Notes under the pieces: generated by a model | The model's input: the letters and a program-made list of their open reading frames with translations, nothing else | Database searches by the model: none | Told to the model about the DNA's origin: nothing | Part shown: piece by piece, positions 8,826 to 27,793 of the stretch | Numbering within the stretch: the stretch's first letter is position 1 | Layout: each line of letters begins with the position of its first letter | Translations under genes and position numbers: made by a program | NCBI GenBank assembly: GCA_964387845.1 | Contig: CAYLXA010000002.1 | Location: 96,001-160,000, forward strand | DNA: 64,000 nucleotides | Source: an uncultured bacterium | Lineage (GTDB): Bacteria > Omnitrophota > Omnitrophia > Omnitrophales > Abzuiibacteriaceae | Direction: 5' to 3'

Positions 8826-9659
8826 ATGAGTGTACTTTCAGCAAGTGTTTCATTAATGCGGCGATTTACTTTATCGCTTCCCAAACCCATTTCAAACCAT
8901 GCCGCAAAAGCATACGAAAAGATTGGATCAACATTCATTGGGCTTTCAGATCAAATGAATTTTGTTCAAAGCGCATCGGGAATACGAAATGATACAGAAT
9001 CTTTTCGACGTGATCTGTTGTGCAAGTTTAACCGTATTCAAAATAATATGATCTGCGCACATCAACCAAATGAGCTTCTCATATTGTCAGACACGATTTT
9101 AAAACTCTCAATTCCCGGCGATATTGTAGAGCTGGGTTGTTATAAAGGAGGTTCATCTGCCAAATTAAGCTGGATAGCGGCGACTACGGGTCGAAAATTG
9201 TATGTTTGCGATTCATTCGAGGGGTTGCCACAGCCTAACGAGCACGATCAATTCCACAAATCGCTCATTGGGCGAGATAAGCATTACAATCAGGGAGATT
9301 ATTGTGGTCAGCTAGACGAAGTAAAGGATAATATTAACCGTTATGGCAGCATGGCGTCTTGCGAATTTATAAAAGGTTTTTTCTCAAATTCGTTAAAAGA
9401 TCTAAAAGTAAAACCAGCACTCATTTTTATGGATGTGGACCTTATTGATTCAGCGCGTGATTGCCTCATTCATTTATGGAATAAGCTGGAAAAGGGCGGA
9501 AAATATTTTACTCACGAAGCCACGATGTTAAATTTTATAACTGAACTTACGAATCATGATTGGTGGCAAAGAAATTTTGGGCATCCAGCTCCTATTCTAA
9601 TGGGAGTCGGATTTGGCATGTCAGATCAAGCAAAAAATCTTGCTTTTTTCCAAAAATAA
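8826..9659 (+). CDS. TylF/MycF-family class I SAM-dependent (O- or N-)methyltransferase
   Basis: VELGCYKGGSSAKLS glycine-rich SAM motif, DSFEGLP, FMDVDL; family typical of sugar methyltransferases. Confidence 0.5.
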   Translation: MSVLSASVSLMRRFTLSLPKPISNHAAKAYEKIGSTFIGLSDQMNFVQSASGIRNDTESFRRDLLCKFNRIQNNMICAHQPNELLILSDTILKLSIPGDIVELGCYKGGSSAKLSWIAATTGRKLYVCDSFEGLPQPNEHDQFHKSLIGRDKHYNQGDYCGQLDEVKDNINRYGSMASCEFIKGFFSNSLKDLKVKPALIFMDVDLIDSARDCLIHLWNKLEKGGKYFTHEATMLNFITELTNHDWWQRNFGHPAPILMGVGFGMSDQAKNLAFFQK

Positions 9660-9661
9660 TT

Positions 9662-10495
9662 ATGACCAAAACAATGCCATCGATAATGATAAATTTAAAT
9701 AAAAAAGCATTGCTCGATATCGCTGAGCAAAAACACCATGAATATGTGACTGCAAGTCCGTTCCCGCATATAGTGATTGATGATTTTCTTCCTCCAGATA
9801 TTTTAGATGTTGTTTTAGAAGAATTTCCAAACCCAGGCGATCCTGTTTGGCTTCAGCATGTTCACGCGAATAGTAAAAAAATGGCATGTAACGATGTTGA
9901 TAAAATGGGACAAATCACTCAACAACTTTTTTATCAATTTAATTCTGCGCTTATCATTGAGTTTCTAGAGAAGCTAACCGGCATTTCGGGACTAATTCCA
10001 GACACAAATTTTACAGGTGGAGGACTTCATTGTATTGGAGAAGGGGGATTTCTAAAAATCCATGCGGATTTTAATTTTCATGAAAAATTAAAATTAGACC
10101 GACGTCTCAATCTACTTGTTTACCTCAACAAAAATTGGAAAGAAGATTACGGCGGCCATTTGGAATTATGGGACAAGAAAATGACTCATAGCGTTAAAAA
10201 AATTCTCCCCATTTTTAATCGTTGTGTTGTATTTGATACCACCGATTTTTCGTTTCATGGCCATCCCGATCCTTTGCAATGCCCTAATAACGTCTATCGA
10301 AAGTCATTAGCTCTCTATTATTATTCCAATGGACGTCCCCTGGAAGAGAAGTCAGATTCGCACTCTACTCTCTATCAGGCGCGGCCACATGAAATTCGGA
10401 TGAAGCACGTTGTTAAAAAGCTATTACCTCCGATTATTTTTGATTTTCTTGTGGATGCAAAAACAAATTTAAAGAAAAAATCTAAAAAAGCATGA
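9662..10495 (+). CDS. 2OG-Fe(II) oxygenase superfamily protein
   Basis: HADFNFH...H motif (HxD...H facial triad pattern: IHADFN, HGHPDP), family commonly found in LPS/glycan loci; start at MTKTMPS (9662). Confidence 0.45.
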   Translation: MTKTMPSIMINLNKKALLDIAEQKHHEYVTASPFPHIVIDDFLPPDILDVVLEEFPNPGDPVWLQHVHANSKKMACNDVDKMGQITQQLFYQFNSALIIEFLEKLTGISGLIPDTNFTGGGLHCIGEGGFLKIHADFNFHEKLKLDRRLNLLVYLNKNWKEDYGGHLELWDKKMTHSVKKILPIFNRCVVFDTTDFSFHGHPDPLQCPNNVYRKSLALYYYSNGRPLEEKSDSHSTLYQARPHEIRMKHVVKKLLPPIIFDFLVDAKTNLKKKSKKA

Positions 10496-10499
10496 AGCT

Positions 10500-11723
10500 A
10501 TGACGCAATCTGAAACTCAAAATAAATTTAAAACCAAGTACGGTTTGCCGTCAGAAGTAATTTTCTGCAAGCGTTGCGTCATGTCAAACCAGCGGCCCGC
10601 TTCAAGTAAAGAATTCAAGCATACCAAATCTCAAAAACACACAACGCTTAATATTCCAAACGATGGTATCTGCGATGCGTGCCGTTACGCGGATAAAAAA
10701 GAAGAAATCAATTGGAAAAGCCGAGAAGCCGAACTTTTGAAACTGCTCGACCGCCACCGCAAAACGGACGGAACTTACGATTGCATTGTTCCTGGAAGCG
10801 GCGGAAAAGACAGTGTTTATGCAGCGCACTTGCTCAAATACAAATACGGTATGCATCCTTTGACGGTCACTTGGCCGCCAATTCTTTACACCGATATTGG
10901 TTACGCGAATTTTAGAAATTGGCTCTACAAAGGCGGTTTCGATAACATTTCGTTTAATTACAACGCCAAAGTTCATGCACTATTAACAAGACTCGCCATC
11001 GAAAACCTTCTTCATCCTTTTCAACCTTTTATTCTTGGACAAAAAAACCTCGCGCCCAAGCTCGCTTTAAAATATGAAGTGCCTTTGATTTTCTACGGTG
11101 AAAGTGAAGCAGAATATGGAAATCCGCTTGCAGAGACCGCAACCTCGCTCCGCGATAAATCTTATTTCACGATGGAAAATCTTTCCGATATTCATTTGGG
11201 CGGCGTAAGCGTGAAAGAACTTCAGGAAAAATACAAACTCACAATCAACGACATTATGACTTATTTGCCGCCGACGGCATCCGAGGTCGCCAAAATGAAT
11301 ATGGAAGTTCATTACCTTGGTTATTATTTAAAATGGACACCGCAGGAAGCCTATTATTACTCGGTTGAAAATGTGGGTTTTCAGGCAAATCCATTCCGCA
11401 CCGAAGGCACTTACAGCAAATACAACAGTTTGGATGATAAAATAGACGGCTTCCACTATTACACCACTTTCATTAAATTTGGCTTAGGTCGCGCAAGTTA
11501 CGATGCATCACAAGAAATTCGCAACAAACATTTGACGCGGGAAGAAGGTATAGCGCTTGTCCGCAAGTTTGACGGGGAGTTTCCTCAAAAATATTTTCAG
11601 GAAATCATGGACTATATCGGCATGAAGCCCGATCATTTTCTGGATCTTTGCGACCAATTCCGGTCTCCGCATTTATGGAAAAAAGAAAATGGGAAGTGGA
11701 TCTTGCGCTATCCGGTCAATTAA
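10500..11723 (+). CDS. N-acetyl sugar amidotransferase (PP-loop ATP pyrophosphatase, WbuX/PseA-type)
   Basis: PP-loop SGGKDS within CIVPGSGGKDSVYAAHLL; N-terminal Cys cluster CKRCVMSN...CDACRY; genomic pairing with hisH/hisF paralogues as in WbuXYZ systems. Confidence 0.75.
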   Translation: MTQSETQNKFKTKYGLPSEVIFCKRCVMSNQRPASSKEFKHTKSQKHTTLNIPNDGICDACRYADKKEEINWKSREAELLKLLDRHRKTDGTYDCIVPGSGGKDSVYAAHLLKYKYGMHPLTVTWPPILYTDIGYANFRNWLYKGGFDNISFNYNAKVHALLTRLAIENLLHPFQPFILGQKNLAPKLALKYEVPLIFYGESEAEYGNPLAETATSLRDKSYFTMENLSDIHLGGVSVKELQEKYKLTINDIMTYLPPTASEVAKMNMEVHYLGYYLKWTPQEAYYYSVENVGFQANPFRTEGTYSKYNSLDDKIDGFHYYTTFIKFGLGRASYDASQEIRNKHLTREEGIALVRKFDGEFPQKYFQEIMDYIGMKPDHFLDLCDQFRSPHLWKKENGKWILRYPVN

Positions 11724-11747: not shown

Positions 11748-13547
11748 ATGACACAGCCGCAAGCAATCAAATACAGCTCTCTGCTTTATTTTATATTGCA
11801 GTATAAAAAAAATTTTTTTGTTTTATTAACTGCAACTCTCGCCGTATCATTTTTTGAAATTTGTCAATTGGCCGCAATGCTGCCAATTTTGAACCGTTTA
11901 ATTCCTGCCACGTCACCCAACGTGCCTGTGCCCGGGTTAAAATTTTTTGAAGGTGCCATTGCAATGGCTCCCTTCAAAGAAACACTAATCTCGGCCGTGG
12001 CTGTGTTTGCTGTTGTTGTGATTGTGCGTTTTTTTATTGTATTCACCGCCGAGCTTTTAAATCATCGAACAACCCAGGAAATCATCTATCAAACAAAAAG
12101 AAAAATTCTCAAAAAAACCTTGGCATCCAAGTACCAATTTTTCCTCGACAGTAAGCACGGAGACCTTTTTTTTATTTGCATTACGGCGCCCGAGAATGCC
12201 GGCGCTTATTTGTCTATTTTCGTTTCAGCTGTGATTTACTTTTTTACCACCATTGCAATTCTAGGGTTTTTGCTATCGATCAATTTTGTTGTCACTTGTT
12301 CCATTATTTTACTCGGGCTTTTGTATTATTTAGGTACGCGGAAGATTTCCGTGCGCGTTTCGTATGTAGGTGGCCAAAAAAGGATCGGTTTGATCAAAGA
12401 ACAACATGGTCTGATTCAAGAATCTCTGCAAGGCATTAAATACATCATTACTTATGGAAAACAGGAGCCTTTGCAGCGAGTGTTTGACCGATCAAGCCGT
12501 GCATTTTGCGATCAAGTCCATCGAGACACTTTCTGGCAGACTCTATTGCAAAAAGTACCAGAGCCAGCACTTTTACTTCTCGCTTCTTCAGGCATCATTC
12601 TGTTGGTAACGTCTATCGGTCAACAAGCCGTCGGAAGTTATCTCAACATCATCGGCGTTTACTTTTTTGCAATCCAAAGAATTATTCCCGCCTTAAATAA
12701 ATTCAGCACCTCTGCTTTTCAAGTGCTGGCCGGCATGCCCAACTTAGAGGCGTGTCAGAATTTTTTGGAAGCTCCTATTGAAAAACAGGCTGACGGCAGC
12801 ATCGCCGTTGATCAGCTTAAGGATGCGATCAGATTTGAGAATGTCAGTTTGACATATCCAAACGGTAAGCATGTCTTGAAAAGTGTGAGTATGATTTTTA
12901 GGAAGGGGAAAACAACCGCAATTGTCGGGGAATCCGGATCCGGTAAGACTTCGGTGGTTAATTTAATTTTGGGCCTGCACCATGCGAGTAACGGCTCTAT
13001 CCTCATTGACGAACATTCGCTGAGCGATGTCAGAATGAGTACTTTGCTGAGCAAAATCGGCTATGTTGGGCAGGAGACATTTCTACTCCACGCCAGCGTT
13101 AAAGATAACATTGCTTTTTACGATCAGTACTCGGATGAAAAAATCATGGAAGCTGCCAAAATGGCGGACGCGGCTGAATTTATCGAAGAACTGCCAGATC
13201 GATATGACACCATTGTGGGGTCCGGAGGTATGAAGCTTTCGGGCGGCCAGCGTCAACGGCTTGCGATTGCGCGCGCATTGTTGCGGCGGCCGGAGATTTT
13301 AGTGTTAGATGAGGCAACCAGTAACTTGGATAGCATTTCAGAAGGCGTTGTGCAGCAAACCATCAATCACATTGCTCAGTATTATACGGTTATTGTCGTT
13401 GCGCACAAATTATCAACGGTGAAAAGTGCCGATCAGATCTACGTACTGCACGATGGTCAAATAGCAGAATCCGGTACGCATGAAGCATTGATGGAAAGAC
13501 GCGGAAAATATTACCAGCTGCATTTTATTTCCAGCGGTTCTGATTAA
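11748..13547 (+). CDS. ABC exporter, fused permease/ATPase (MsbA-like)
   Basis: 6 N-terminal TM helices; Walker A GESGSGKTS, signature LSGGQRQRLAIARAL, Walker B ILVLDEATSNLD. Confidence 0.85.
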   Translation: MTQPQAIKYSSLLYFILQYKKNFFVLLTATLAVSFFEICQLAAMLPILNRLIPATSPNVPVPGLKFFEGAIAMAPFKETLISAVAVFAVVVIVRFFIVFTAELLNHRTTQEIIYQTKRKILKKTLASKYQFFLDSKHGDLFFICITAPENAGAYLSIFVSAVIYFFTTIAILGFLLSINFVVTCSIILLGLLYYLGTRKISVRVSYVGGQKRIGLIKEQHGLIQESLQGIKYIITYGKQEPLQRVFDRSSRAFCDQVHRDTFWQTLLQKVPEPALLLLASSGIILLVTSIGQQAVGSYLNIIGVYFFAIQRIIPALNKFSTSAFQVLAGMPNLEACQNFLEAPIEKQADGSIAVDQLKDAIRFENVSLTYPNGKHVLKSVSMIFRKGKTTAIVGESGSGKTSVVNLILGLHHASNGSILIDEHSLSDVRMSTLLSKIGYVGQETFLLHASVKDNIAFYDQYSDEKIMEAAKMADAAEFIEELPDRYDTIVGSGGMKLSGGQRQRLAIARALLRRPEILVLDEATSNLDSISEGVVQQTINHIAQYYTVIVVAHKLSTVKSADQIYVLHDGQIAESGTHEALMERRGKYYQLHFISSGSD

Positions 13548-15368: not shown

Positions 15369-16379
15369 ATGAATCTTAAAGGCAAAAGAGTTCTGGTTAC
15401 CGGAGCCGATGGTTTTATCGGTTCTCATTTGACCGAAGCGCTGGTGAGGCGTGGATGTAACGTACGCGCGTTCGTATTTTACAATTCGTTCAATTCATGG
15501 GGCTGGCTGGATGAGTCGCCAAAGGATATCAGAAAGTCTTTGGACGTGGTTGCTGGAGATGTCCGCGATCCGCACGGTGTCCGAGAAGCCGTAAAGGGAT
15601 GTGACGTTGTCATGCACCTGGCAGCGCTTATTTCAATTCCGTTTTCGTATCATTCGCCGGATGCTTTTGTTGATACAAACATAAAGGGGACTCTCAACGT
15701 GTTGCAGGCATCTCGAGATTCAAAAGTAAGCAAAATTATTCATACCTCCACGAGCGAAGTTTACGGAACCGCGCAGTTTGTGCCCATTACGGAAGAGCAC
15801 CCATTGCAGGGCCAATCACCCTATTCGGCCTCAAAAATTGGGGCTGATCAGATGGCTACGGCTTTTCACTCAGCGTTCCAAACACCGGTTTGTATTTTTC
15901 GGCCGTTCAATACATATGGTCCAAGGCAGTCAGCGCGCGCGGTTATTCCTTCTATTATTATTCAAATCGCAACGGGAAAGAGTGAGATCAAGCTTGGATC
16001 TGTCCATCCAACTCGAGATTTTACCTATGTATCCGACACGGTCGAAGGTTTTATCAAAGCCGCGGAATCAGAAAAGTCGGTTGGCGAGGTGATTAACGGG
16101 GGTAGTAATTTTGAGATCTCAATTTCGGATACCGTAAAATTGATTAGCAAAATCTTAAACCGAAAAATTGCGGTCATAAGCGATAATCAAAGAATTCGCC
16201 CGAAAGCAAGCGAGGTGGAGCGATTGTGGGCTGACAATAAGAAGGCAAAAAAACTACTTAACTGGAAGCCTGCGCATAGCGGTTTAGAAGGTTTTGAAAA
16301 GGGGCTAAGAAAAACCGTGGACTGGATCTCGCAAGCGGATATTTTAAAGCGATACAAAGAAGAGATTTATAACATTTAA
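15369..16379 (+). CDS. NAD-dependent sugar-nucleotide 4,6-dehydratase/epimerase, extended SDR (LegB/PseB/RmlB-like)
   Basis: Rossmann VLVTGADGFIGSHL, catalytic YSASK (SPYSASKIGADQ); RBS GGAGA. Confidence 0.8.
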   Translation: MNLKGKRVLVTGADGFIGSHLTEALVRRGCNVRAFVFYNSFNSWGWLDESPKDIRKSLDVVAGDVRDPHGVREAVKGCDVVMHLAALISIPFSYHSPDAFVDTNIKGTLNVLQASRDSKVSKIIHTSTSEVYGTAQFVPITEEHPLQGQSPYSASKIGADQMATAFHSAFQTPVCIFRPFNTYGPRQSARAVIPSIIIQIATGKSEIKLGSVHPTRDFTYVSDTVEGFIKAAESEKSVGEVINGGSNFEISISDTVKLISKILNRKIAVISDNQRIRPKASEVERLWADNKKAKKLLNWKPAHSGLEGFEKGLRKTVDWISQADILKRYKEEIYNI

Positions 16380-16381
16380 CA

Positions 16382-17557
16382 ATGAAGCGAATAAAATCCA
16401 ACATAGACGCCACAAGTGTTCTGAAGGCTGTTAGGAAGTGCTTGCCCGGGGACAGTCGCCCCATCCAACTTCACGAGCCCTGGTTTGCCGGCAACGAGCA
16501 GAAGTATGTCAGTGCGTGCATTAAGAGCGGGATTGTTTCATCGATCGGGCCTTATGTTGAACAGTTTGAGAAACAATTGATCCGATTGACAGGCTCAAAA
16601 TTTGCAATTGCCACGATCAACGGAACAGCTGGGCTTCATACGGCACTCCGAATGGCCGGAGTAGAGGCAAATGATGAGGTTTTAGTGCCGTCATTGTCAT
16701 TCGTTGCAACATCAAATGCGATCGCGTATTGCGGCGCTATTCCTCATTTTATTGACAGTGAGATGCGGGCGCTTGGCGTTGATCCGCACAAGCTTCAGGA
16801 TTATTTGGTAAAAATATCCAAACGGCGAAATAGCGGCTTCATCAATAAAACAACAGGCCGGAGAATAAGAGCGGCGGTTGTGGTGCATACATTCGGCCAC
16901 CCGGCGGATCTTGACGCTATCCAGGCAGTTTGCAAAAAATTTAAACTTCCACTAATTGAAGATGCTGCAGAATCGATCGGATCCTATTACAAAGGGAAGC
17001 ACACCGGTACAATCGGAGACTTTGGTGTTTTAAGCTTTAACGGCAACAAAACAATCACGTCAGGCGGCGGAGGCGCGATTTTAGTACAGAATCAAAAACT
17101 GGCAAAACATCTCCGGCACATTACAACCACCGCTAAAATACCTCATGCTTGGCGTTATTATCATGATGAAATCGGATATAATTATCGGCTTCCCAATCTA
17201 AACGCTGCGCTTGGCTGTGCGCAATTGGAGTCGCTGCCGATGTTTATCAAGCGCAAACGGGCCTTAGCCAAACGTTACGAGAAGGCTTTCTCCCATATTA
17301 ATGGAGTTAGTTTTATTAAGGAACCTCCTTTTGCAAAAAGCAACTACTGGCTAAATGCTGTCAGGCTGGAAGGTGTTGGATTGCGGGAAAGAGATCGGTT
17401 TTTAACGCTTATGCACACGCACAACATTAAAACAAGGCCGGTGTGGACACTGACGCATCGTCTTCCTATGTATCGAAATTGCCCGCGAATGGATATGTCC
17501 GTATCAGAGAAAATTGAAAAAGAAACTATTAACCTGCCCAGCAGCCCAGCGTTATGA
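16382..17557 (+). CDS. DegT/DnrJ/EryC1/StrS-family PLP-dependent sugar aminotransferase (LegC/PseC-like)
   Basis: Family-typical segments GDEVLVPSLSFVATSNAI, FGVLSFNGNKTITSGGGGAIL (PLP-lysine region). Confidence 0.8.
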   Translation: MKRIKSNIDATSVLKAVRKCLPGDSRPIQLHEPWFAGNEQKYVSACIKSGIVSSIGPYVEQFEKQLIRLTGSKFAIATINGTAGLHTALRMAGVEANDEVLVPSLSFVATSNAIAYCGAIPHFIDSEMRALGVDPHKLQDYLVKISKRRNSGFINKTTGRRIRAAVVVHTFGHPADLDAIQAVCKKFKLPLIEDAAESIGSYYKGKHTGTIGDFGVLSFNGNKTITSGGGGAILVQNQKLAKHLRHITTTAKIPHAWRYYHDEIGYNYRLPNLNAALGCAQLESLPMFIKRKRALAKRYEKAFSHINGVSFIKEPPFAKSNYWLNAVRLEGVGLRERDRFLTLMHTHNIKTRPVWTLTHRLPMYRNCPRMDMSVSEKIEKETINLPSSPAL

Positions 17558-19737
17558 AGCGAAGAATTTGTGTAGTTACTAGTTCGCGCGCCGATTTTGG
17601 TCATCTGCAGTGGGTCATGACCTATCTGAAAAAAGATCCGAGAGTTCGCTTGCAAGTTGTGGTGACCGGCTCACACTTATCTCGCGCGCATGGAACCACC
17701 TTGCGCGAAATTCAGGACGCGGGAATTTCTGAATCTGCTCGGATTCCAATCATTGCAAAAGGGGATTCTGTTGTTGCGATAACGCAAGCGGCTGGAATGG
17801 CATTGAGCAGATTTGCAAAGGTCTTTGACAGGCTCAAACCCGAATTGCTGCTGGTTGTGGGAGATCGTTATGAAATTCATTCGGCCGTAACGGCGGCGCT
17901 TCTCGCTAAAATTCCGGTTGCACATATTGCCGGTGGCGACATTACGGAAGGGGCATTCGATGACGCGTTGCGGCACAGTATCACCAAAATGGCTCATTTG
18001 CACTTTGTGACAAATGCCGTGTCGGCGAAACGAATTCGGCACATGGGAGAAAACCCTTCGCATATTTTTAACGTTGGAAATCCTGCGCTTGACCATGTAA
18101 CGAAATCAAAATTATTCACTAAAAACGAAATTGAGGAGAAGCTTGCTTTCAAAATGCGCTCACGCAATATCTTGATTACGTTTCATCCGGTTACGCTGGA
18201 CACCGAACCATCTGACCGGCAATTTAAACAGTTGCTGAGCTCGCTGAATCGGTTGGGAGACGAATATGGCCTTATTTTTACTAGGCCCAACGCGGATCCG
18301 GCAGGACAAAAGATATCTAAATTGATCGATCATTTTGTCAAAACGCATTCAAACGCTATTGTAAAAGCCTCGCTAGGTCATTTGTTATACTTAAGCATCA
18401 TGAATGAAGTTGATTTGGTTGTCGGAAATTCATCAAGCGGGATTTATGAGGCGCCAACATTTAAAATTCCCACAGTTAACATCGGAAACCGGCAAAAAGG
18501 CCGCTTGCGAGCGGCTTCTGTGATTGATTGCGCGCCGAGCAGGGCGGCAATTAGCCGAGCAATTCGGTCAGCTCTAGCAAAGGATTGCTCGCAGGTTGAA
18601 AATCCTTACGGACGGGGAAATAGTTCCGAGCAAATTTATAAGATTATTCGCTCTGTCCAGAACCCAAAAACACTAATTCAAAAGAAATTTTATGATGCCG
18701 GCGTGCCCACTAAAACTGGGCCGGTTTATGTGATCGCCGAAGCGGGGGTGAATCATGGCGGCTCGCTGAAACTTGCAAAAAAACTGATCGACGCAGCTTC
18801 GCAAGCCGGCGCTAATGCGGTCAAGTTTCAAACTTTTGATTCGGATATGCTGGTAACGCGACAAGCTAAAAAAGCAAAATACCAGCAAGACACAACCGGC
18901 AAAAATGGGTCTCAATATGAAATGCTCAAAAAATTAGAACTCAGCCAGAAAGATCATTTTGCGCTGAAAGCTCACTGCAAAAAAAGAAAAATTGATTTTT
19001 TATCGACCCCTTTTGATTTAAAAAGCCTTGATTTCTTAATCAACAATCTGCAGGTCCGGAAAATTAAAATATCTTCAGGCGATATTACCAACGGGCCGCT
19101 ACTGTTGAAAGCTGCGGAATCAAAACTTCCGATTATTTTATCAACCGGAATGTCAACGCTTGACGAAATTGAAGCTGCCGTAAGATTGATCGAGAAAGGA
19201 TATCGATCCAGCGCCTCTCTTTTAAAATCAAACTTAAAACTGCTTCATTGTACAAGCGAATATCCGGCCTCATTTTCTGATATGAATTTGTTATCGATCG
19301 ATTTTTTAAGAAATTATTTTCAATTGGATGCCGGGCTGTCAGATCATTCGAGCGGGATAGCAGCTGCAATTGCAGCCGTAGGGCGCGGCGCATCCATTAT
19401 TGAAAAACACATTACTTTGAATAAAAGCATGGCAGGCCCCGATCACCGCGCATCGCTTGATCCGAATGAGTTTCGAGAACTGGTTCGATCAATTCGCCAA
19501 GTCGAAGAAGCTATGGGATCCTACGTAAAAAGGCCGGCAGCGTCAGAATTAAAAAACCGAAGCGCAGCCAGAAAGAGCATCGTCGCTTCCAAGCCGATTA
19601 AACGCGGAGAAAGGCTGACCCGTCACAATCTGGCGCTGAAGCGTCCCGGTGTCGGGATCAGCCCCATGAATCTTTCGGAAGTCATAGGACGACTATCAAC
19701 CAAAAATTATAAAAAAGACGATATCATTGTTATCTAA
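17554..19737 (+). CDS. bifunctional fusion: N-terminal hydrolysing UDP/GDP-HexNAc 2-epimerase (NeuC/LegG-like) + C-terminal nonulosonic acid synthase with SAF domain (NeuB/LegI-like)
   Basis: N-term RICVVTSSRADFGHL...VVTGSHL, LLVVGDRYEIHS (NeuC family); C-term YVIAEAGVNHGGSL...NAVKFQTF, LLHCTSEYPA, SDHSSG (NeuB TIM barrel) and C-terminal SAF/antifreeze-like domain. Confidence 0.8.
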   Translation: MKRRICVVTSSRADFGHLQWVMTYLKKDPRVRLQVVVTGSHLSRAHGTTLREIQDAGISESARIPIIAKGDSVVAITQAAGMALSRFAKVFDRLKPELLLVVGDRYEIHSAVTAALLAKIPVAHIAGGDITEGAFDDALRHSITKMAHLHFVTNAVSAKRIRHMGENPSHIFNVGNPALDHVTKSKLFTKNEIEEKLAFKMRSRNILITFHPVTLDTEPSDRQFKQLLSSLNRLGDEYGLIFTRPNADPAGQKISKLIDHFVKTHSNAIVKASLGHLLYLSIMNEVDLVVGNSSSGIYEAPTFKIPTVNIGNRQKGRLRAASVIDCAPSRAAISRAIRSALAKDCSQVENPYGRGNSSEQIYKIIRSVQNPKTLIQKKFYDAGVPTKTGPVYVIAEAGVNHGGSLKLAKKLIDAASQAGANAVKFQTFDSDMLVTRQAKKAKYQQDTTGKNGSQYEMLKKLELSQKDHFALKAHCKKRKIDFLSTPFDLKSLDFLINNLQVRKIKISSGDITNGPLLLKAAESKLPIILSTGMSTLDEIEAAVRLIEKGYRSSASLLKSNLKLLHCTSEYPASFSDMNLLSIDFLRNYFQLDAGLSDHSSGIAAAIAAVGRGASIIEKHITLNKSMAGPDHRASLDPNEFRELVRSIRQVEEAMGSYVKRPAASELKNRSAARKSIVASKPIKRGERLTRHNLALKRPGVGISPMNLSEVIGRLSTKNYKKDDIIVI

Positions 19738-19746
19738 AGACGCGTC

Positions 19747-20340
19747 ATGAGAGAAGAGATTGATAAACCCATTATTGTGATTGGGGCTGGAGGGCATGCC
19801 AAAGTCCTGATCGACGCACTGCGGTTAATGGGATGCCAGGTGTTGGGCGCAACCGAAAAAAAACCGGAAATAATTGATCAGGCAAAACTTCCGGTGAAGC
19901 TTTTGGGAAACGACGATGAAATATTAAAGCATTCACCCGACAGCATACTGCTCGTTAACGGTGTAGGCCAAGTTGGGGTAGGGCCAAGTCGCTCTCAGAT
20001 ATTTGATAGATATAAATCAAAAGGCTATCGGTTTGCAATCATCCAACATCCCCGAGCCGTTGTCGCGGCTGATGTTGAATTGCATGAGGGCGCACAAATT
20101 ATGGCTGGTGCAATCATTCAAACTGCTTCCAAAATTGGCTGTAACACCATTGTGAATACAGGCGCATCGATTGACCATGATTGCCAAATTGAAAGCCATG
20201 TCCATATTGCGCCTGGAGCCATTTTGTGCGGGATGGTTGAAGTGGGAGAGGGATCTCATATTGGCGTTGGTGCTATTCTCATTAACAATACAAAAGTGCC
20301 GCGAAACAGTTTTATTAAGTCCGGTACTCTGGTGAAGTAA
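19747..20340 (+). CDS. NeuD/PglD/LegH-family sugar N-acetyltransferase (hexapeptide repeat, left-handed beta-helix)
   Basis: N-terminal IIVIGAGGHAKVLIDAL Rossmann-like segment followed by hexapeptide repeats (IGCNTIVNTGASIDHDCQI...). Confidence 0.7.
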   Translation: MREEIDKPIIVIGAGGHAKVLIDALRLMGCQVLGATEKKPEIIDQAKLPVKLLGNDDEILKHSPDSILLVNGVGQVGVGPSRSQIFDRYKSKGYRFAIIQHPRAVVAADVELHEGAQIMAGAIIQTASKIGCNTIVNTGASIDHDCQIESHVHIAPGAILCGMVEVGEGSHIGVGAILINNTKVPRNSFIKSGTLVK

Positions 20341-20350
20341 GGAGTTTGTT

Positions 20351-21397
20351 ATGGAAATTTGGAAAAAAACGCTCGTATCAAAGTTAACGCCGATCAAAGA
20401 AGTGATTAAAGTAATCGATGCGGGATCTTTGCAAATTGCTTTGGTCGTTGATGAAAATTATAAGCTTTTAGGAACCGTTACCGACGGTGATGTTCGCCGC
20501 GGCATTTTAAAAAACATATCCATGAATGATCCCGTGCACAAAATTATGCAGTCGAAACCAGTCATTGCAAAACTGGGCGAGGAGCGAGAAAAAGTTTTGG
20601 TACGCATGAAAGAAAAGCAGATCAATCAAATTCCATATCTTGATCAAGCGGGGCGTGTCAAAGGACTTGAAGTTATCCATGATTTGCTTAACGGATCCGC
20701 AAAAGATAATCCTGTATTATTGATGGTGGGCGGCCTGGGAAGCCGGCTGCAACCAATCACAAACGATCTTCCGAAGCCGCTCATTAAAGTCGGTGGCAAG
20801 CCGATTTTGGAACGCATTTTAGAGGATTTGATTGAATACGGCTTCCGGAAGTTTTACTTTTCCGTATTTTATAAATCCGAAATGATTCAAGAATATTTCG
20901 GTGATGGCAGCCGCTGGGATGTGGAAATTCGGTATATTCGCGAGCAAAAGAGAATGGGCACTGCCGGCGCCTTGAGCCTTCTTCCTGAAAAGCCTTCGGC
21001 ACCAATTTTAATTATGAACGGAGATTTGGTTACAAAAGTTAATTTTCAGCATCTTTTTGATTTTCATCAGCAGCAATCCGGCGATTTGACCGTGTGCGTC
21101 CGTGAGTATGATTTTCAAGTGCCTTACGGCGTTATTAAAATGAACGGTCATCTTATTTCAGGCATCGACGAAAAACCGGTGCATAAGTTTTTTGTAAACG
21201 CCGGAATTTATTTGATGGAGCCTGCGCTTTTGCGAAACATATCCAAAAACCGTTTTTTAGACATGACCCAGCTGATTGAAAAATTGAAGTCCAAAAAGAA
21301 AATTCTCGCATTTCCGATCCGTGAATATTGGCTCGATATCGGCCGGCACGACGACTTAAAGCGTGCAACCGAAGAAATCGAGTCGTTGTTTAAATAA
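20351..21397 (+). CDS. CBS-domain pair fused to sugar-phosphate nucleotidyltransferase (PtmE-like)
   Basis: Two CBS-like segments at N-term then LLMVGGLGSRLQPITNDLPKPLIKVGGKPILE nucleotidyltransferase signature; strong RBS AAGGAG. Confidence 0.65.
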   Translation: MEIWKKTLVSKLTPIKEVIKVIDAGSLQIALVVDENYKLLGTVTDGDVRRGILKNISMNDPVHKIMQSKPVIAKLGEEREKVLVRMKEKQINQIPYLDQAGRVKGLEVIHDLLNGSAKDNPVLLMVGGLGSRLQPITNDLPKPLIKVGGKPILERILEDLIEYGFRKFYFSVFYKSEMIQEYFGDGSRWDVEIRYIREQKRMGTAGALSLLPEKPSAPILIMNGDLVTKVNFQHLFDFHQQQSGDLTVCVREYDFQVPYGVIKMNGHLISGIDEKPVHKFFVNAGIYLMEPALLRNISKNRFLDMTQLIEKLKSKKKILAFPIREYWLDIGRHDDLKRATEEIESLFK

Positions 21398-21420: not shown

Positions 21421-22224
21421 ATGAACTCATCAACCGTACCCCAAATCAGCATTTTACTTTGTGTTCACAACGGTGAACGAACAGTTGAGCAAGCGATCAA
21501 CAGTCTTCTTGCTCAGACGTTTAAGGATTTTGAGCTCATCGTGATCAATGATGGGTCAACCGATTCTACTCTCGCTCAGTTAGAGAAATTTCAAGACCCA
21601 AGAATCTTCATTCAAAGCATCCCCCGGCGCGGACTCACGAAAGCGCTCAATGTGGGGCTTGCTCAATGCCGCGGTGAATTCATTGCGCGCGTCGATGCTG
21701 ATGATGTTGCGCTGCCTAATCGGCTTGAGCGCCAGGCTGTATTCTTAAATAAGCATCGAAGCGTGGGCGTGATTGGGACCGGGTATGAAATTTTAACTGA
21801 AAACGGTTCGCGAAAACGGGCGACCGTCCCTCTCCTGGAAACCGATTATGAAATCAAGCAAGCTCTTCCGAAATTTAACCCGTTTCACCACGGGTCAGTC
21901 ATGATTCGCCGGCAAATTTTGATCGAAGAGGGCGGCTATGATGAAAATTTTAAACTGGCTCAGGATTATGAACTGTGGCTCAGGCTATCAGGACGTTGCC
22001 AAATGGCTAATATCGGGGAAGTTCTGATGGTGCGCAGAGAGGGCCGAGAAACACTCAAAAAAGAACGCGAACAAAATTGGTACGGAATCAAGGCCAGATT
22101 GAAAGCAATTCAGCGAGGGAATTTAAGTTTTTGGAACGTGATCTACATTCTTCGCCCATTTTTAGTTGTGCTAACACCGGACTGGATAAAATCCGTTATT
22201 CGAAAATTGATCCGAAATGCCTAA
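21421..22224 (+). CDS. glycosyltransferase family 2
   Basis: ISILLCVHNGERTVEQAINSLLAQTFKDFELIVINDGSTDST (GT2 N-terminal signature), DxD-type ARVDADD. Confidence 0.7.
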   Translation: MNSSTVPQISILLCVHNGERTVEQAINSLLAQTFKDFELIVINDGSTDSTLAQLEKFQDPRIFIQSIPRRGLTKALNVGLAQCRGEFIARVDADDVALPNRLERQAVFLNKHRSVGVIGTGYEILTENGSRKRATVPLLETDYEIKQALPKFNPFHHGSVMIRRQILIEEGGYDENFKLAQDYELWLRLSGRCQMANIGEVLMVRREGRETLKKEREQNWYGIKARLKAIQRGNLSFWNVIYILRPFLVVLTPDWIKSVIRKLIRNA

Positions 22225-24412
22225 AATTAAAATCCTATTCATTGATTCTCGCGGAGACTTTGGCGGGGGATCGAACCATCTGCTGTCCATTTTGGAATCT
22301 CTGGATCCGAATAAATTCGACGCATTTGTTGCAGCGCCGTCCGGTCAAGGCAATTCGGAGAAATACCGGAAACTTTGCCGTGCATTCTGTGATATTCCAT
22401 TCCGGAAATTTTCACTCGATGCTTTTCGTGATTTAGTTGAGTTTGCCGAAACCCACCAAGTTCATTTTGTCCATTCCCACGGCCGCGGGGCTGGCATCTA
22501 TAGCCGCTTTATTTTTTGGAAAACCAAAATTCCGGCCATTCATACTTTTCACGGAATTTCTTATGGATTCTTCGGAGCATTCATCGACCGCTTTTTAAAA
22601 AAATGGACAGCCAGGTTTATCCATGTTTCTGATTCTGAGCGGGAAGCCGCGGCTAATCTTGGGGTTTCCGATCCGCGCAGGGCAGTGACCATCTACAACG
22701 GGATCGACTACAGGTGTTTTCAATCGGGTAAAAGCAGAAAAGATGCAAAAGCATCGCTTGGGTTAAGTTTAGATCATTTTGTCATTGGATGCGTGGCTAG
22801 ATTTGATGCTTGCAAGCGCCACCAAGATTTAATCGAAGCCTTGGCTTTATTGACTACTCGCTATCCCAATCTGCGTTTAGTGCTGGCTGGTGACGGCGAA
22901 ACGCGTATAAAGATCGAGCAATTGGCAAATGAATGTGGTGTCTTGGGTAAAGTTTTATTTTTGGGAGAACAAAAAAATCCTCAAATCGTTTATGCGGCAT
23001 CTGATGTATTCGTGCTCGCATCCGAATTTGAGGGCCTTCCTTTAGCGCCTCTGGAGGCGATGGCAGCGGGTTGTGCGGTTGTGTTATCGAATGTGCGCGG
23101 CAACCGGGATGTGGTTCAGGATGAAAAAGACGGCCTGCTATTCGAAGCAAAAAATCCGGAAGCGCTTGCTGCTGCCATTGCGCGGTTAATCGGCAGCCAG
23201 GAGCTGCAGTCAAGACTTATCGAATCGGCCCACAGGACCGTGATTGAGCGATTTTCCATCGATCGCATGCGTGCACAAATTTATGCTTTTTATGAAACCC
23301 TTGTTCCGGTTCCGAAATTCCGGAAAGCCGCGTTGACGCACGACTGGCTTTTTCATATGCGCGGAGGGGAAAAAGTTTTGGAGTCCATCGGAGAACTTTT
23401 TCCGCTTGCGCCCATCTACACGCTTTTTCTCGATCAGAAAAAACTGTCTGAATCCATTAACCGGCACCAGATAATTGCCTCGTGGCTGAACCAGATCCCT
23501 CTCATTGCCGGGTTTTACCGGTATCTACTCCCCCTATTTCCGTTGGTGATGAAGCAATTTGATATCAAAGATCATCTTTTAATCGTTAGCAGCAATCACT
23601 GCGCTGCTAAATCTATCTCGAAGGGGAGGCGCGCGCTACACATTTGCTATTGTCACGCACCAATGCGCTACGCATGGGGTTTTGAATCAGAATATTTTGG
23701 CCGGTTTCCGTTTTTTCTCCGCAGTCTGATCAGGACAGTTCTGAGCTGGCTTCGTTATCGCGATCTCGGATCTAATCCCGGCGTCGATCACTTTATTGCA
23801 AACTCTCAGAATATTAGAAAACGCATCAACCAATACTATGCAAGAGAAGCTGATGTGATTTACCCGCCGATTCAGAAGCGGTTGAAACAGTGTGAGCCTG
23901 CCCAATCGAGCGAGTACTTGATTGTCTCGGCGCTCGTTCCTTACAAACGGATCGATATAGCCGTGCAGGCATTCAACGAATTACAGCTTCCGCTAACAAT
24001 CATCGGGTCCGGCCCCTTATTGCCATCTCTGCAAAAGCAAGCGAAATCGAATATCCGGTTTTTGGGTTGGCAGCCTGATCATGAAGTCGCAAAATATTAT
24101 GCCAGCTGCAAAGCGCTCATTTTTCCGACCGAAGAAGACTTTGGCATGGTTCCGGTTGAGGCAATGATGTACGGAAAGCCGGTGATTGCGTTTGCGTGCG
24201 GCGGCGCGCTTGAAACCGTGATTCCCGGAAAAACAGGACTGCTTTTTGATGCACAAACACCGGAAGCGCTAACCAACGCCGTAAAACAGTTTTCCATTAA
24301 TCAGTTTGACTCTAAAGCCATTACAGCCTATGCTCAGAAATTTAGCGCCGAGCACTTTAATGATGCCGTTATAAAACTTTTGTCGGAATTTACCAATGGT
24401 CAAGCAAACTAA
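22217..24412 (+). CDS. two-module GT4 glycosyltransferase (tandem GT-B domains)
   Basis: 731 aa; first module ends with EFEGLPLAPLEAMAAGCAVV (EX7E), second with EDFGMVPVEAMMYGKPVIAF; ATG overlaps upstream stop. Confidence 0.6.
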   Translation: MPKIKILFIDSRGDFGGGSNHLLSILESLDPNKFDAFVAAPSGQGNSEKYRKLCRAFCDIPFRKFSLDAFRDLVEFAETHQVHFVHSHGRGAGIYSRFIFWKTKIPAIHTFHGISYGFFGAFIDRFLKKWTARFIHVSDSEREAAANLGVSDPRRAVTIYNGIDYRCFQSGKSRKDAKASLGLSLDHFVIGCVARFDACKRHQDLIEALALLTTRYPNLRLVLAGDGETRIKIEQLANECGVLGKVLFLGEQKNPQIVYAASDVFVLASEFEGLPLAPLEAMAAGCAVVLSNVRGNRDVVQDEKDGLLFEAKNPEALAAAIARLIGSQELQSRLIESAHRTVIERFSIDRMRAQIYAFYETLVPVPKFRKAALTHDWLFHMRGGEKVLESIGELFPLAPIYTLFLDQKKLSESINRHQIIASWLNQIPLIAGFYRYLLPLFPLVMKQFDIKDHLLIVSSNHCAAKSISKGRRALHICYCHAPMRYAWGFESEYFGRFPFFLRSLIRTVLSWLRYRDLGSNPGVDHFIANSQNIRKRINQYYAREADVIYPPIQKRLKQCEPAQSSEYLIVSALVPYKRIDIAVQAFNELQLPLTIIGSGPLLPSLQKQAKSNIRFLGWQPDHEVAKYYASCKALIFPTEEDFGMVPVEAMMYGKPVIAFACGGALETVIPGKTGLLFDAQTPEALTNAVKQFSINQFDSKAITAYAQKFSAEHFNDAVIKLLSEFTNGQAN

Positions 24413-25616
24413 AGCAGTTCTTATTTTGGATCAAATAGTACATATTGCGGTAGCGCTTGCTATCATGTCTTATATTTTTTCACGTGGGCTCTTGCTTGTC
24501 GGTATTTATACAGCGCTGATTGCTTGGCTGCTTGGCCGAATCTTAAAGCGAAAGACCATGCTTCCGCACACAGAGTGGAATATTTATCTGGGAATTATTT
24601 TGACTGCACTCATAGCTTCGGTGATCGTAAACGGAAATTGGTACGAAGGAGCGCGGGGCCTGCACAAGTGGCTAAGAGCTCTATTGCTATTTCTATTTGC
24701 CGCTGATTACCTGAGAGATAAGGAAAGCAAAAAAAACGTTTTACTGGCCCTTGGCACCGCGTTTTTGGTTGCTGTACTAGACGGGATTGCGCAGTATTTT
24801 ACTGGCAGAGACTGGATCCGCGGATTTGAGCTTGGGTATGCCGATTTTGTACCGCGCGTGACTTCATCGTTTGGTTATTTTGGCATGTTCGCTTCGTTCC
24901 TGGTCATGGCAGGGCCTATTGTATTTTGGTTTTTTTGGAAAAATTCTTCAAAACTAATCCGTTACGGACTTCTAGGAATTTCAATGTCTTTGGGTCTTCT
25001 AAATCTTTATCTGACTCGGGCGCGCGGTGCGTGGATTTCGCTGGCAGCAATGTTCGTTGCTTATTTGGTAATTACAAAGCGATGGGTCATGATTACGGTG
25101 CTGGCAGTAGCAACCGCTGCATTTTTGTTTTTACTGCCTCGCGACATTGTGCTGCACAGTCCAAAGGAAGTGGGAATCGACAAAACAATTCACCACCGCA
25201 TAATCTTATCCAACGAAGCCCTGACGATTTGGAGAGCGAACCCGCTTTTTGGATGCGGGCTTAATACGTATGTGCAGAATGTGGAAAAATATAATTTACC
25301 AAATTCACATGAGGTTAGAAATTATTACGCTCACAATGGCTACCTTCAATATGGCGCAGAGACCGGTATTGTTGGTTTTTTAGCGCTCGTATTCTTTTTA
25401 TTTCGGTATGGGATGGTGGCTATCTATAAATGCATTACTGAGCGCGCCGCTAGATTTTCTTTGAATCACGCATTATTAGTTTCAAACGGCAGTTTCCTCT
25501 TTTACATGTTTTTTGATACAATTTTTCACAATTTACAGCCATTTTTACTTTTTTGGTTTTTGCTTGGTTGGCATGCGTCTGTATTGCGGTATTCCCATGA
25601 AAACATTACGTCATAG
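24396..25616 (+). CDS. O-antigen ligase / Wzy_C-family membrane protein (WaaL-, Wzy- or PglL-like)
   Basis: ~11 TM helices; conserved LTRARGAWISL and HNGYLQYGAETG motifs of the O-antigen ligase family; start uncertain (alternative ATG 24465). Confidence 0.6.
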   Translation: MVKQTKAVLILDQIVHIAVALAIMSYIFSRGLLLVGIYTALIAWLLGRILKRKTMLPHTEWNIYLGIILTALIASVIVNGNWYEGARGLHKWLRALLLFLFAADYLRDKESKKNVLLALGTAFLVAVLDGIAQYFTGRDWIRGFELGYADFVPRVTSSFGYFGMFASFLVMAGPIVFWFFWKNSSKLIRYGLLGISMSLGLLNLYLTRARGAWISLAAMFVAYLVITKRWVMITVLAVATAAFLFLLPRDIVLHSPKEVGIDKTIHHRIILSNEALTIWRANPLFGCGLNTYVQNVEKYNLPNSHEVRNYYAHNGYLQYGAETGIVGFLALVFFLFRYGMVAIYKCITERAARFSLNHALLVSNGSFLFYMFFDTIFHNLQPFLLFWFLLGWHASVLRYSHENITS

Positions 25617-27024
25617 ACGGAAGCGGAAAGGCGACTTTTTATCTTCTGTTATATTCCTAGCGTCCGATATTGCATCAATCTCAGCCGCGTTTGTTGTAGC
25701 TTATTTGGCGCGGTTCGACTGGCTCCAAAATTTCTTTCAAAAAGAGCCGCCCGACTTTAACCGGTACTTGTATGTGCTACCGGTAGTGATTGCCATCTTT
25801 ATCGCCACATTCCGGCAAAAGCAAATTTACGTTTTTGATACGCTTCGGAGGCGCCTCGATGAGATCGGTATTCTTTTTGCTTCGGTCGTTATTGCCGGCA
25901 TCCTGCTGATGGCACTCACGTTCTTGTACCGTGATTTTTCATATTCAAGAACATTTTTTGCCCTTCATTTAATCTTGTCATTTGTATTAATTTGTTTTTT
26001 TAGACATTTAGCCTATTGGCTGGATGGTGCAGTTAGATTAGCGACCGGAACCCGGATTCGGATTCTGGTAATGGGCGCTAACCGCAGCGCGCGTCAAATT
26101 ATTCGCCGAATTAACAAGAGCTACCGGAATCGATATGAGGTTGTCGGTGTATTGACAGGAGGGAAATCTCACGGTGAAAAGCATTTTGAACAGGCGCCGA
26201 TTGTCGGAAGTCTTGAGGATGTCTTTAAAAAAATGCCGCAGCTAAACGCCGATGAAGTGATTTTGACGGTTTCCGATTTTCCGGATGAAAAACTAACCGA
26301 GCTTTTCCTGAAATGCGAGAATGAAATGGTTTCATTTCTTAAAATTCCAGATTTATTCGGCATTTTCACAAGCGGAGTGGATATTCATTATATTGACAAC
26401 GTCCCTTTGATCGGGATTAAAAAATCGCCGCTCGATAAATTTGTGAACCGGCTTTTTAAGAGGTCTTTTGACCTTGCCACATCCCTGGTCGGCGTTGTTT
26501 TGCTCTCACCGGTTTATGTGGTGATTGCCATATTGGTAAAATGCACGGACGGCGGGCCGATTTTGTATCGCCAGGACCGGACCGGGATGGACGGGCGGAG
26601 TTTTTTTATGTATAAATTCAGAACCATGCGCGTAGATGCCGAATCGAAGTCAGGGCCCGTATGGGCAGTGGCTGACGATCAGCGGGTGACATCGGTCGGG
26701 AAATTTTTACGCCGCTTTAATCTCGATGAATTGCCGCAGTTTTTTAACGTTTTGCGCGGAGAAATGAGTATCGTGGGGCCCCGTCCGGAGCGCCCTCACT
26801 TTGTAGGGAAATTCCGCGACCAAGTGCCTCGATACATGGCGCGTCACAAAATCAAATCCGGAATCACAGGATGGGCACAAGTAAACGGCTTTCGCGGTAA
26901 CACGTCTATCGCGGAGCGCACCAAATACGACCTCTATTATTATGAAAATTGGTCGTTATTCTTAGACATTAAAATCATTCTCCTAACTTTGTTTTCACCG
27001 AAAGGTTTTCAAAACGCGTATTGA
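25597..27024 (+). CDS. polyprenyl-phosphate sugar phosphotransferase (WbaP/EpsB-like initiating transferase)
   Basis: N-terminal TM helices, central Rossmann-like domain, C-terminal bacterial sugar transferase domain ([25 protein letters not shown]); start chosen at MKTLRHRRK. Confidence 0.75.
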
Positions 27025-27025
27025 T

Positions 27026-27793
27026 ATGTCCAAAACCCCGATCACCATTGCTGTCATGGCAAAAAACGAAGAAAAAAGATTGCCGGCATGCCTCGAGTCT
27101 GTGCGCTGGGCAGATGAAATTCTGATTCTGGATGACGAAAGTACGGACCGTACCGTTCAAATTGCAGAATCTTTCGGTGCTCGCGTGATCAAGCGAAAAT
27201 TGGATGTTGAGGGCCGTCACCGCAATTTTCTATATGCACACGCCAAAAACGAATGGGTCTTGAGTTTGGATGCCGATGAGCACGTAACGCCCGAGCTCGC
27301 TAAAGAAATTGACGAAGTAATCAAGAAAAACGACCCGGGATTCGCCGGTTATTCCATGCCGATGCAGATTTTTATCGGAACCCGATGGATCCGAGGAGCG
27401 GGTTATTACCCATCCGCGCGCTTAAAAATGTTTCGCCGCGATAAATTCAAATACGAGGAAACCGGTGTTCATCCGCGCGTTTTTCTCGATGGGAAGTGTG
27501 GACGCTTAAAAGGAGAGCTGCTTCATTATTCTTTCCGGGATTTCTCGCATTTTATTGCCAAATTCAACCGGGAAACCGATTTGGAAGCCGTGAAATGGCT
27601 TGAAGATAAGCGTAAAATGAGTTTTGGGCTTGCGTTTTACAAGTCGACCGACCGTTTTTTCCGCGCATTCATTACAAAAAAGGGTTACCGCGATGGTTTT
27701 CTCGGATTTATTCTGTCTTGTTTTTCATCCTGGTATCAACTTGTGACTTATGCCAAATACTGGTTCGCAAAGCAAAACCAAGCGCCCCAATAA
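27026..27793 (+). CDS. glycosyltransferase family 2 (LPS-core-type)
   Basis: ITIAVMAKNEEKRLPACLESV...ILILDDESTDRT. Confidence 0.6.
   Translation: MSKTPITIAVMAKNEEKRLPACLESVRWADEILILDDESTDRTVQIAESFGARVIKRKLDVEGRHRNFLYAHAKNEWVLSLDADEHVTPELAKEIDEVIKKNDPGFAGYSMPMQIFIGTRWIRGAGYYPSARLKMFRRDKFKYEETGVHPRVFLDGKCGRLKGELLHYSFRDFSHFIAKFNRETDLEAVKWLEDKRKMSFGLAFYKSTDRFFRAFITKKGYRDGFLGFILSCFSSWYQLVTYAKYWFAKQNQAPQ

Follow-up and report, generated by a model that had tools for sequence, protein, structure and literature searches.

In Campylobacter jejuni, cytidine monophosphate (CMP)-activated legionaminic acid (Leg) is made by LegB, LegC, LegH, LegG, LegI and LegF, and PtmE supplies the guanosine diphosphate (GDP)-linked sugar (Schoenhofen et al. 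2009, in the account of that work given in PMC5378307). The Leg locus of Tannerella forsythia FDC 92A2/UB4 (BFO_1074 to BFO_1060) encodes a LegB specific for GDP-N-acetylglucosamine (GDP-GlcNAc), a PtmE homologue and, beside the pathway genes, a dedicated nonulosonate transferase, and makes a tailored Leg derivative that bears an N-glycolyl group (PMC5378307, PMC5420450). LegX/PtmE, which consists of two CBS domains and a nucleotidyltransferase, is genetically required for Leg synthesis and for Leg-dependent flagellin glycosylation, can be exchanged between Gram-positive and Gram-negative bacteria and has been put forward as a bioinformatic marker for Leg pathways (bioRxiv 10.1101/2022.03.25.485807). 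Here, we analyzed a stretch of 64,000 nucleotides (contig CAYLXA010000002.1, positions 96,001 to 160,000 of the forward strand; referred to as the window) from an uncultured bacterium of the Omnitrophota, a candidate phylum of the Planctomycetes-Verrucomicrobia-Chlamydiae (PVC) group. We suggest that a block of five genes at 15369-21397 of the window probably represents the dedicated part of a CMP-Leg pathway of the GDP-linked type known from Campylobacter and Tannerella, and that LegG and LegI are encoded in this block as a single protein.

The five open reading frames (ORFs) of the block lie on the + strand, as does every neighbouring gene between 2292 and 30165, and are tightly packed, with a spacing of -4 to +13 nucleotides (nt). 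ORFs were assigned to families with Pfam and NCBIfam profiles, and for NCBIfam the curated cut-offs were applied (Table 1). The gene set that a preliminary description of this DNA had placed at 15369-21397 was confirmed, with exact ORF ends and with profile scores that greatly exceed chance and lie over the curated cut-offs. The NeuC-like and NeuB-like functions that it had listed as two genes are both present, but in a single ORF of 727 amino acids (aa), and the block therefore has five genes and not six. The LegB ORF retains intact NAD-binding and catalytic motifs (GADGFIG at residue 12, TSE at 128 and YSASK at 152), and the LegH ORF matches both PglD_N and Hexapep of Pfam. The PtmE-like protein carries a KpsF-type CBS pair (aa 9-106) followed by a GGLGSR motif at residue 127 and is predicted to be a GlcN(Ac)-1-phosphate guanylyltransferase. 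The cytidylyltransferase proposed to supply CMP activation, LegF, was also borne out. Its more plausible start is the ATG at 6565 (MAKKILLTIAARGGSKG...) rather than the GTG at 6538; with the ATG, the protein has the typical N-terminus ...IAARGGSKG. The closest solved structures to LegF in the Protein Data Bank (PDB) are CMP-N-acetylneuraminic acid (CMP-Neu5Ac) synthetases (84-88 bits), KdsB models score at most 41 bits, and LegF is 31-44% identical to the cytidylyltransferases that follow PtmE in other cassettes. A scan of the whole window with Rfam gave no matches, and scans for promoters and terminators did no better than chance and are uninformative on operon limits.

A check proposed in the preliminary description, the comparison of hidden Markov models (HMMs) for LegB versus PseB and for NeuB/LegI versus PseI, gave a consistent answer: the Leg-side models pass and those for pseudaminic acid (Pse) fail. 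A Pse pathway was rejected, given that the scores of the four enzymes against PseB (71 bits, cut-off 407.75), PseC (223.5 bits, cut-off 423.5), PseI (272.5 bits, cut-off 340) and PseF (131 bits, cut-off 205.7) are all below cut-off and that the block encodes a 2-epimerase, an enzyme for which the Pse route has no use.

The block has counterparts in many genomes. In a comparison set of 80 loci from species-representative genomes, among which the genome of the window is not represented and in which ORFs were compared by BLASTP, the cassette recurs across many phyla in two orders: LegB-LegC-LegG-LegI-LegH-PtmE-LegF and, in Campylobacterales and Bacteroidota, LegB-LegC-LegH-LegI-LegG-PtmE-LegF. 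All seven functions are found in 31 of these loci, a PtmE-like gene in 67, and LegF immediately follows PtmE in 35. The core enzymes of the window are ordinary members of the cassette clade, with 44-71% identity to their counterparts.

Sequence does not by itself prove the substrate, but the GDP-linked reading is well supported because LegX/PtmE is treated in published biochemical and genetic work as a marker of the GDP-GlcNAc route to Leg, and the indirect lines of evidence agree with each other. The claim in the preliminary description that the CBS-nucleotidyltransferase points to this route gained support from the PtmE/LegX architecture of the protein, from its identity of 49-51% to the ptmE-position gene of Campylobacterales (31-59% to the same-position gene elsewhere) and from the use of this protein as a marker in the literature, where the T. 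forsythia homologue was likewise read as a pointer to GDP (PMC5378307). In the PDB, the closest structures to the nucleotidyltransferase are mannose-1-phosphate guanylyltransferases (93 bits). Alternatively, Leg could be made via uridine diphosphate (UDP)-linked intermediates, a route that has been reported for Legionella pneumophila, in which case the CBS-nucleotidyltransferase would make a UDP-sugar or have a regulatory or other role. Several observations weigh against a GDP-linked pathway: two routes to Leg, one of them the UDP-based route of Legionella, are recognised (PMC6137143); the solved 2-epimerase that best matches the LegG half is itself labelled GDP/UDP; the PtmE-like protein, for which no curated HMM exists, is below every NCBIfam cut-off, and its matches mix uridylyl- and guanylyltransferases (Arch_glmU, MurU, man1P_GTase, HddC); and LegF is not adjacent to the block but lies ~8 kb upstream of it. 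We nevertheless consider UDP-linked intermediates unlikely, given that (i) the dehydratase is of the LegB type (TIGR04180; GDP_Man_Dehyd 248 bits, Epimerase 192 bits) and not of the Polysacc_synt_2/PglF type (PF02719, 71 bits), and the ORFs that were scanned between 30 and 32222 include no gene for a PglF/CapD-type (Polysacc_synt_2) dehydratase, (ii) LegC is nearer to GDP-perosamine synthases (209 bits) than to PglE (187 bits), and LegH is nearer to the GDP-perosamine N-acetyltransferase PerB (90 bits) than to PglB (79 bits) or PglD (50 bits), (iii) the cassette has a linked PtmE-like gene in most of the comparison loci, and (iv) of five nucleotide-GlcNAc substrates the LegB of T. forsythia converts only GDP-GlcNAc (PMC5378307).

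Accepting a GDP-linked pathway to a Leg-type sugar, the genes upstream of the block suggest that this sugar is modified. A WbuX-family amidotransferase, 46% identical to its counterpart in L082, a locus with a fused cassette, is encoded together with HisH-like and HisF-like proteins, and trios of this kind lie next to Leg cassettes in 15 of the 80 loci. On the basis of this trio we predict an acetamidino derivative, although the score of the HisF-like protein just under the WbuZ cut-off speaks against this assignment. In the window the trio is split by genes for a TylF methyltransferase and a 2-oxoglutarate (2OG) oxygenase, and two class I methyltransferases in the locus are further candidate tailoring enzymes. 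A TylF gene also lies inside the Leg cassette of L082. An acetamidino derivative, perhaps with additional modifications, is a more likely product than plain Leg5,7Ac2. The same genes bear on the possibility that the sugar is a different stereoisomer among the 5,7-diamino nonulosonates (4-epi- or 8-epi-Leg, acinetaminic acid or fusaminic acid) or a derivative so heavily tailored that its chemistry is different. Stereochemistry is not fixed by sequence, and at the thresholds used the TylF protein, the 2OG oxygenase and the two class I methyltransferases are absent from the other 80 Leg loci; however, no additional epimerase or reductase genes are found in or beside the block and its core enzymes are those ordinary for the cassette clade, and we regard such a product as improbable.

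The synthase domain was assigned mainly from its context. In sequence identity it is closer to cassette-linked LegI (44-56%) than to PseI, the NeuB of N. meningitidis or second-copy NeuB paralogues (33-36%), and N. meningitidis NeuB groups with one such second-copy paralogue, apart from cassette-linked LegI. The attempt, suggested in the preliminary description, to place the NeuB domain was therefore successful in that the nearest sequences are cassette-linked LegI and not Pse or NeuB synthases, but a formal separation of LegI from NeuB did not emerge from these poorly resolved clades. Two lines of evidence count against a LegI assignment: a large-scale phylogeny fails to separate NeuB from LegI (PMC8208679), and in the PDB the synthase domain has near-equal, non-discriminating scores to PseI (173 bits), NeuB (164 bits) and SpsE (156 bits). 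It is given this difficulty, and the fact that the fusion protein passes the NeuC and NeuB equivalog models, that one could envision the fusion protein making Neu5Ac together with NeuA and NeuD, while LegB, LegC, LegH and PtmE separately make a GDP-di-N-acetylbacillosamine (diNAcBac)-type hexose as a direct glycosyl donor. This scenario is very unlikely, because the seven genes travel as one cassette across phyla, because the epimerase half matches the GDP/UDP-diNAcBac hydrolysing 2-epimerase (5ZLR/5XVS) with 260 bits and N. meningitidis SiaA with only 33 bits, and because the synthase groups with cassette-linked LegI and away from N. meningitidis NeuB. The claim that the organism makes a Leg-type sugar was supported; "the polysaccharide" need not be its carrier, and the acceptor could be lipopolysaccharide (LPS), capsule or a protein glycan.

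The fusion protein consists of a LegG/NeuC domain (aa 3-365), a linker of ~10 aa and a LegI/NeuB domain with SAF (aa 391-725). Its N-terminal half is predicted to be a hydrolysing NDP-diNAcBac 2-epimerase and its C-terminal half a legionaminic acid synthase. At the junction, the sequence is ...LIQKKFYD-AGVPTKTGP-VYVIAEAGVNH; among relatives that lack the fusion, LegG ends with ...KKxFYE(xx)stop and LegI starts with M(x3-8)IIAEAGVNH, arguing for a simple end-to-end fusion via a short linker. LegG and LegI are not encoded as one ORF in any of the 76 comparison loci in which both domains were found. In six of these (L002, L003, L006, L007, L021 and L067) the two genes share a reading frame and only a lone stop codon separates them, and therefore one base change would fuse them. 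A protein database contains ~42 other metagenomic clusters of ~745-aa NeuC-NeuB proteins, which are 42-55% identical to the fusion protein of the window, its closest homologue having 55% identity, and which have comparable linkers of 9-12 aa rich in P, S, G and K. Three other fused LegG-LegI genes that were inspected are all located inside the same Leg cassette. In a neighbour-joining tree the fused proteins form ~12 groups, two of which are large and the others of which comprise one or two proteins, and therefore the tree does not separate a single from a repeated origin. That the 727-aa ORF arose as an artefact of assembly or sequencing, through loss of the stop codon between two genes, would fit both its absence from the 76 comparison loci and the lone stop codons in six of them, but is highly improbable given the identical protein in an NCBI contig and an independent Logan assembly (the reads may be shared), the further fused clusters with the same architecture and comparable linkers, and the cassette context of the three inspected. 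In the literature we found no paper describing a NeuC-NeuB or LegG-LegI fusion and nothing relevant on PDB entries 7B0M or 5ZLR. A natural LegG-LegI fusion could simplify the enzymatic synthesis of legionaminic acid. Outside the window, a 982-aa protein (P0052) from a Nanoarchaeota metagenome-assembled genome contains Epimerase_2, NeuB, SAF and CTP_transf_3, and thus appears to combine the epimerase, the synthase and the CMP-activating enzyme in a triple fusion.

The best candidate in the locus for a Leg transferase is a 650-aa protein with a GT-B fold (AlphaFold AF2 model, predicted local distance difference test score (pLDDT) 93.7), which we consider likely to have this function. Its gene lies directly upstream of legF; similarly, both close homologues lie upstream of cytidylyltransferase genes in nonulosonate loci, either directly (L089) or with one gene in between (L087/L088), and an 894-aa relative (P0254) is fused to a CTP_transf_3 domain, thus providing a Rosetta-stone fusion. 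An exhaustive HMMER search identified 1107 representatives of this family, mostly of 600-670 aa. Among 50 aligned relatives, 46 match the BFO_1060 model (best E = 3.3e-35), and the protein has a K-x-H-P-x-E motif (KAHPNE, residues 503-508) of which H505 is invariant in 50 sequences. The BFO_1060/TFUB4_00887 family is genetically required for the transfer of Pse or a Leg derivative in Tannerella (PMC5420450). Arguing against a transferase, the match of the 650-aa protein itself to the BFO_1060 model (NF046086) is under the cut-off of 200 bits and covers only the C-terminal 160 residues, and the fold fits 2-epimerases as well as transferases (its neighbours are 2-epimerases, TagF and WaaA). By BLAST, the protein has no similarity to the ~630-aa proteins of the Leg loci L083 and L085. 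Only a few CMP-nonulosonate transferases are known, and this large, uncharacterised GT-B family provides good candidates for such enzymes.

By combining these data, we suggest the following pathway. (i) PtmE/LegX would make GDP-GlcN(Ac) from GTP and hexosamine-1-phosphate, and if the product were GDP-GlcN an additional housekeeping acetylation of the GlmU type would be needed; (ii) LegB would carry out the 4,6-dehydration, (iii) LegC the amination at C4 and (iv) LegH the acetylation that gives GDP-diNAcBac; (v) the N-terminal half of the fusion protein would release GDP and epimerise C2, and (vi) its C-terminal half would condense the free 2,4-diacetamido-2,4,6-trideoxymannose with phosphoenolpyruvate (PEP) to give Leg5,7Ac2, the free sugar probably passing directly between the two active sites; (vii) LegF would make CMP-Leg; (viii) WbuX, HisH and HisF would most likely convert one N-acetyl group to an acetamidino group, and the TylF methyltransferase and the 2OG oxygenase may tailor the sugar further; and (ix) the 650-aa GT-B protein would most likely transfer the sugar to an undecaprenyl-linked glycan. 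For this glycan, initiation would fall to the WbaP-type protein, extension to the GT2 and GT4 glycosyltransferases, flipping to the ABC exporter and ligation or polymerisation to the Wzy_C protein. Going beyond this pathway, we speculate that the LegG-LegI fusion channels the free trideoxy-mannose, that the product is an undescribed Leg derivative, which bears an acetamidino group together with O-methyl, a hydroxylated acyl group or both and is attached by an uncharacterised ~650-aa GT-B family, and that the Leg module is swapped between sister lineages as a means of surface-antigen diversification; as a whole, this extended proposal is tentative.

Table 1. Genes of the Leg-type locus in the window, with the functions predicted for them and the profile matches on which these predictions are based.
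Predicted feature	Position	Strand	Profile matches
650-aa GT-B protein, candidate CMP-Leg glycosyltransferase	4608..6560	+	weak C-terminal TIGR04396 52 bits; BFO_1060 family 37.7 bits
LegF, CMP-nonulosonate synthetase	6565..7281	+	CTP_transf_3 70 bits (cut-off 22.6)
HisF-like WbuZ homologue	7278..8150	+	TIGR03572 WbuZ 274 bits (cut-off 299.7); AglZ/HisF2 acetamidino family 207 bits
HisH-like glutamine amidotransferase (WbuY role)	8122..8817	+	TIGR01855 209 bits (cut-off 105.4); Pfam GATase
TylF-family O-methyltransferase, possible sugar tailoring	8826..9659	+	Pfam TylF 80.5 bits
2OG-Fe(II) oxygenase, possible tailoring	9686..10495	+	2OG-FeII_Oxy_3 70 bits; weak FlmC-family match
WbuX-family N-acetyl sugar amidotransferase (PP-loop, SGGKDS)	10500..11723	+	TIGR03573 347 bits (cut-off 203.2)
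Fused transmembrane domain-nucleotide-binding domain (TMD-NBD) ABC exporter, candidate lipid-linked glycan flippase	11748..13547	+	HepA 345, MsbA 331 and PglK 244 bits, all below cut-offs
LegB, NAD-dependent (GDP-)GlcNAc 4,6-dehydratase, 336 aa	15369..16379	+	TIGR04180 521.9 bits (cut-off 475)
LegC, pyridoxal phosphate (PLP)-dependent 4-aminotransferase, 391 aa	16382..17557	+	TIGR04181 524 bits (cut-off 420)
LegG-LegI fusion, 727 aa	17554..19737	+	NeuC TIGR03568 434 bits (cut-off 235.9) in the N-terminal half; NeuB TIGR03569 460.6 bits (cut-off 399.65) in the C-terminal half
LegH, NeuD/PglD-type hexapeptide N-acetyltransferase, 197 aa	19747..20340	+	TIGR03570 (NeuD/PglB/VioB) 181 bits (cut-off 160.8)
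PtmE/LegX-type CBS-pair and sugar-1-phosphate nucleotidyltransferase, 348 aa	20351..21397	+	Pfam CBS and NTP_transferase
GT2, double-GT4 (731 aa), Wzy_C ligase/polymerase-like protein, WbaP-type phosphoglycosyl transferase and second GT2	21421..27793	+	Pfam

The block is embedded in a glycan locus whose flanks carry housekeeping genes of the chromosome (priA, fmt, gap, glgB, malQ, pgk, recG, fabF and smc). The named homologues of RecG, with 52-55% identity, all come from metagenome-assembled genomes of Candidatus Omnitrophica, a single-marker result that provisionally points to the Omnitrophota. A GT4 gene is also present upstream of the block, and downstream of it the 731-aa protein (22217-24412) contains two complete tandem GT4 (Glycos_transf_1) modules. 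The loci L087/L088 are probably from a sister genome, whose RecG is 76% identical to that of the window, and L087 is syntenic with the window for a methyltransferase (38% identity), a GT2 (60%) and the double GT4 (68%). In L087 (19472-20940) this methyltransferase abuts the GT2 and the five-gene Leg block is absent between them; therefore, 15369-21397 is exactly a presence/absence module at a conserved site. Upstream, L087/L088 carry a different nonulosonate set with NeuB (41% identical), cytidylyltransferase, FkbH-like, MaoC and short-chain dehydrogenase/reductase (SDR) genes. No repeats were found flanking the five-gene block, and there is therefore no sign of a mobile-element mechanism. The locus thus provides an example of the exchange of nonulosonate modules at a fixed chromosomal site.

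Three further observations concern the window as a whole. The upstream margin of the glycan locus (30-2016 and 2292-3884) encodes two GDSL/SGNH hydrolase-like proteins, which could be enzymes for O-acetyl handling, as well as a PMT_2-type GT-C glycosyltransferase, which could be a periplasmic transferase. The G+C content between 2000 and 14000 is 0.41-0.45, with a minimum of ~0.41 at 8-12 kb, and in the downstream housekeeping region it is mostly ~0.46-0.50; a lower G+C content is usual for surface-glycan loci. Finally, an 831-aa ORF (43078-45573) that lies between glgB and malQ matches no NCBIfam model at E <= 1e-10.

How does the locus relate to the systems in which Leg and its derivatives are made? 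Compared with C. jejuni, the window has the same enzyme set and would use the same chemistry, its LegB and LegC pass their models and a CBS-pair nucleotidyltransferase is present; the sequence comparison behind this likeness was made with Campylobacterales loci. Unlike in C. jejuni, LegG and LegI are one polypeptide, LegF is detached from the other genes, the order is LegB-LegC-LegG~LegI-LegH-PtmE and not ...LegI-LegG-PtmE, and the window is without a flagellin or Maf context and without PtmF, PtmA and PgmL genes. The relationship to the WbuX/WbuY/WbuZ systems is similar in kind: the WbuX homologue is above cut-off and has HisH-like and HisF-like partners in the locus, but the HisF-like protein falls narrowly short of the WbuZ cut-off and the trio is split by methyltransferase and oxygenase genes. 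With T. forsythia the window shares the C-terminal BFO_1060-type domain of the 650-aa protein with its HP motif; however, this protein is far below the family cut-off and has an unrelated N-terminal part of ~400 aa, the phylum is different, and the gene order also differs, BFO_1074 to BFO_1063 following the order LegB-LegC-LegH-LegI-LegG-PtmE-LegF.

We found no paper linking the Omnitrophota with legionaminic acid, and our analysis adds a predicted legionaminic-acid-decorated surface glycan to this candidate phylum, while leaving the current understanding of the Leg pathway unchanged. The cassette itself is standard, well known and widely distributed. TIGR04180 and TIGR04181 were built around a seven-gene cassette of NeuABCD plus a dehydratase, an aminotransferase and a nucleotidyltransferase that was first noted in the LPS locus of Leptospira interrogans. 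Like this cassette, the window has all seven functions and passes both marker models; unlike it, two of these functions are fused and NeuA/LegF is displaced, and it is these minor variations, the fused LegG-LegI and the displaced LegF, that are new in this locus.

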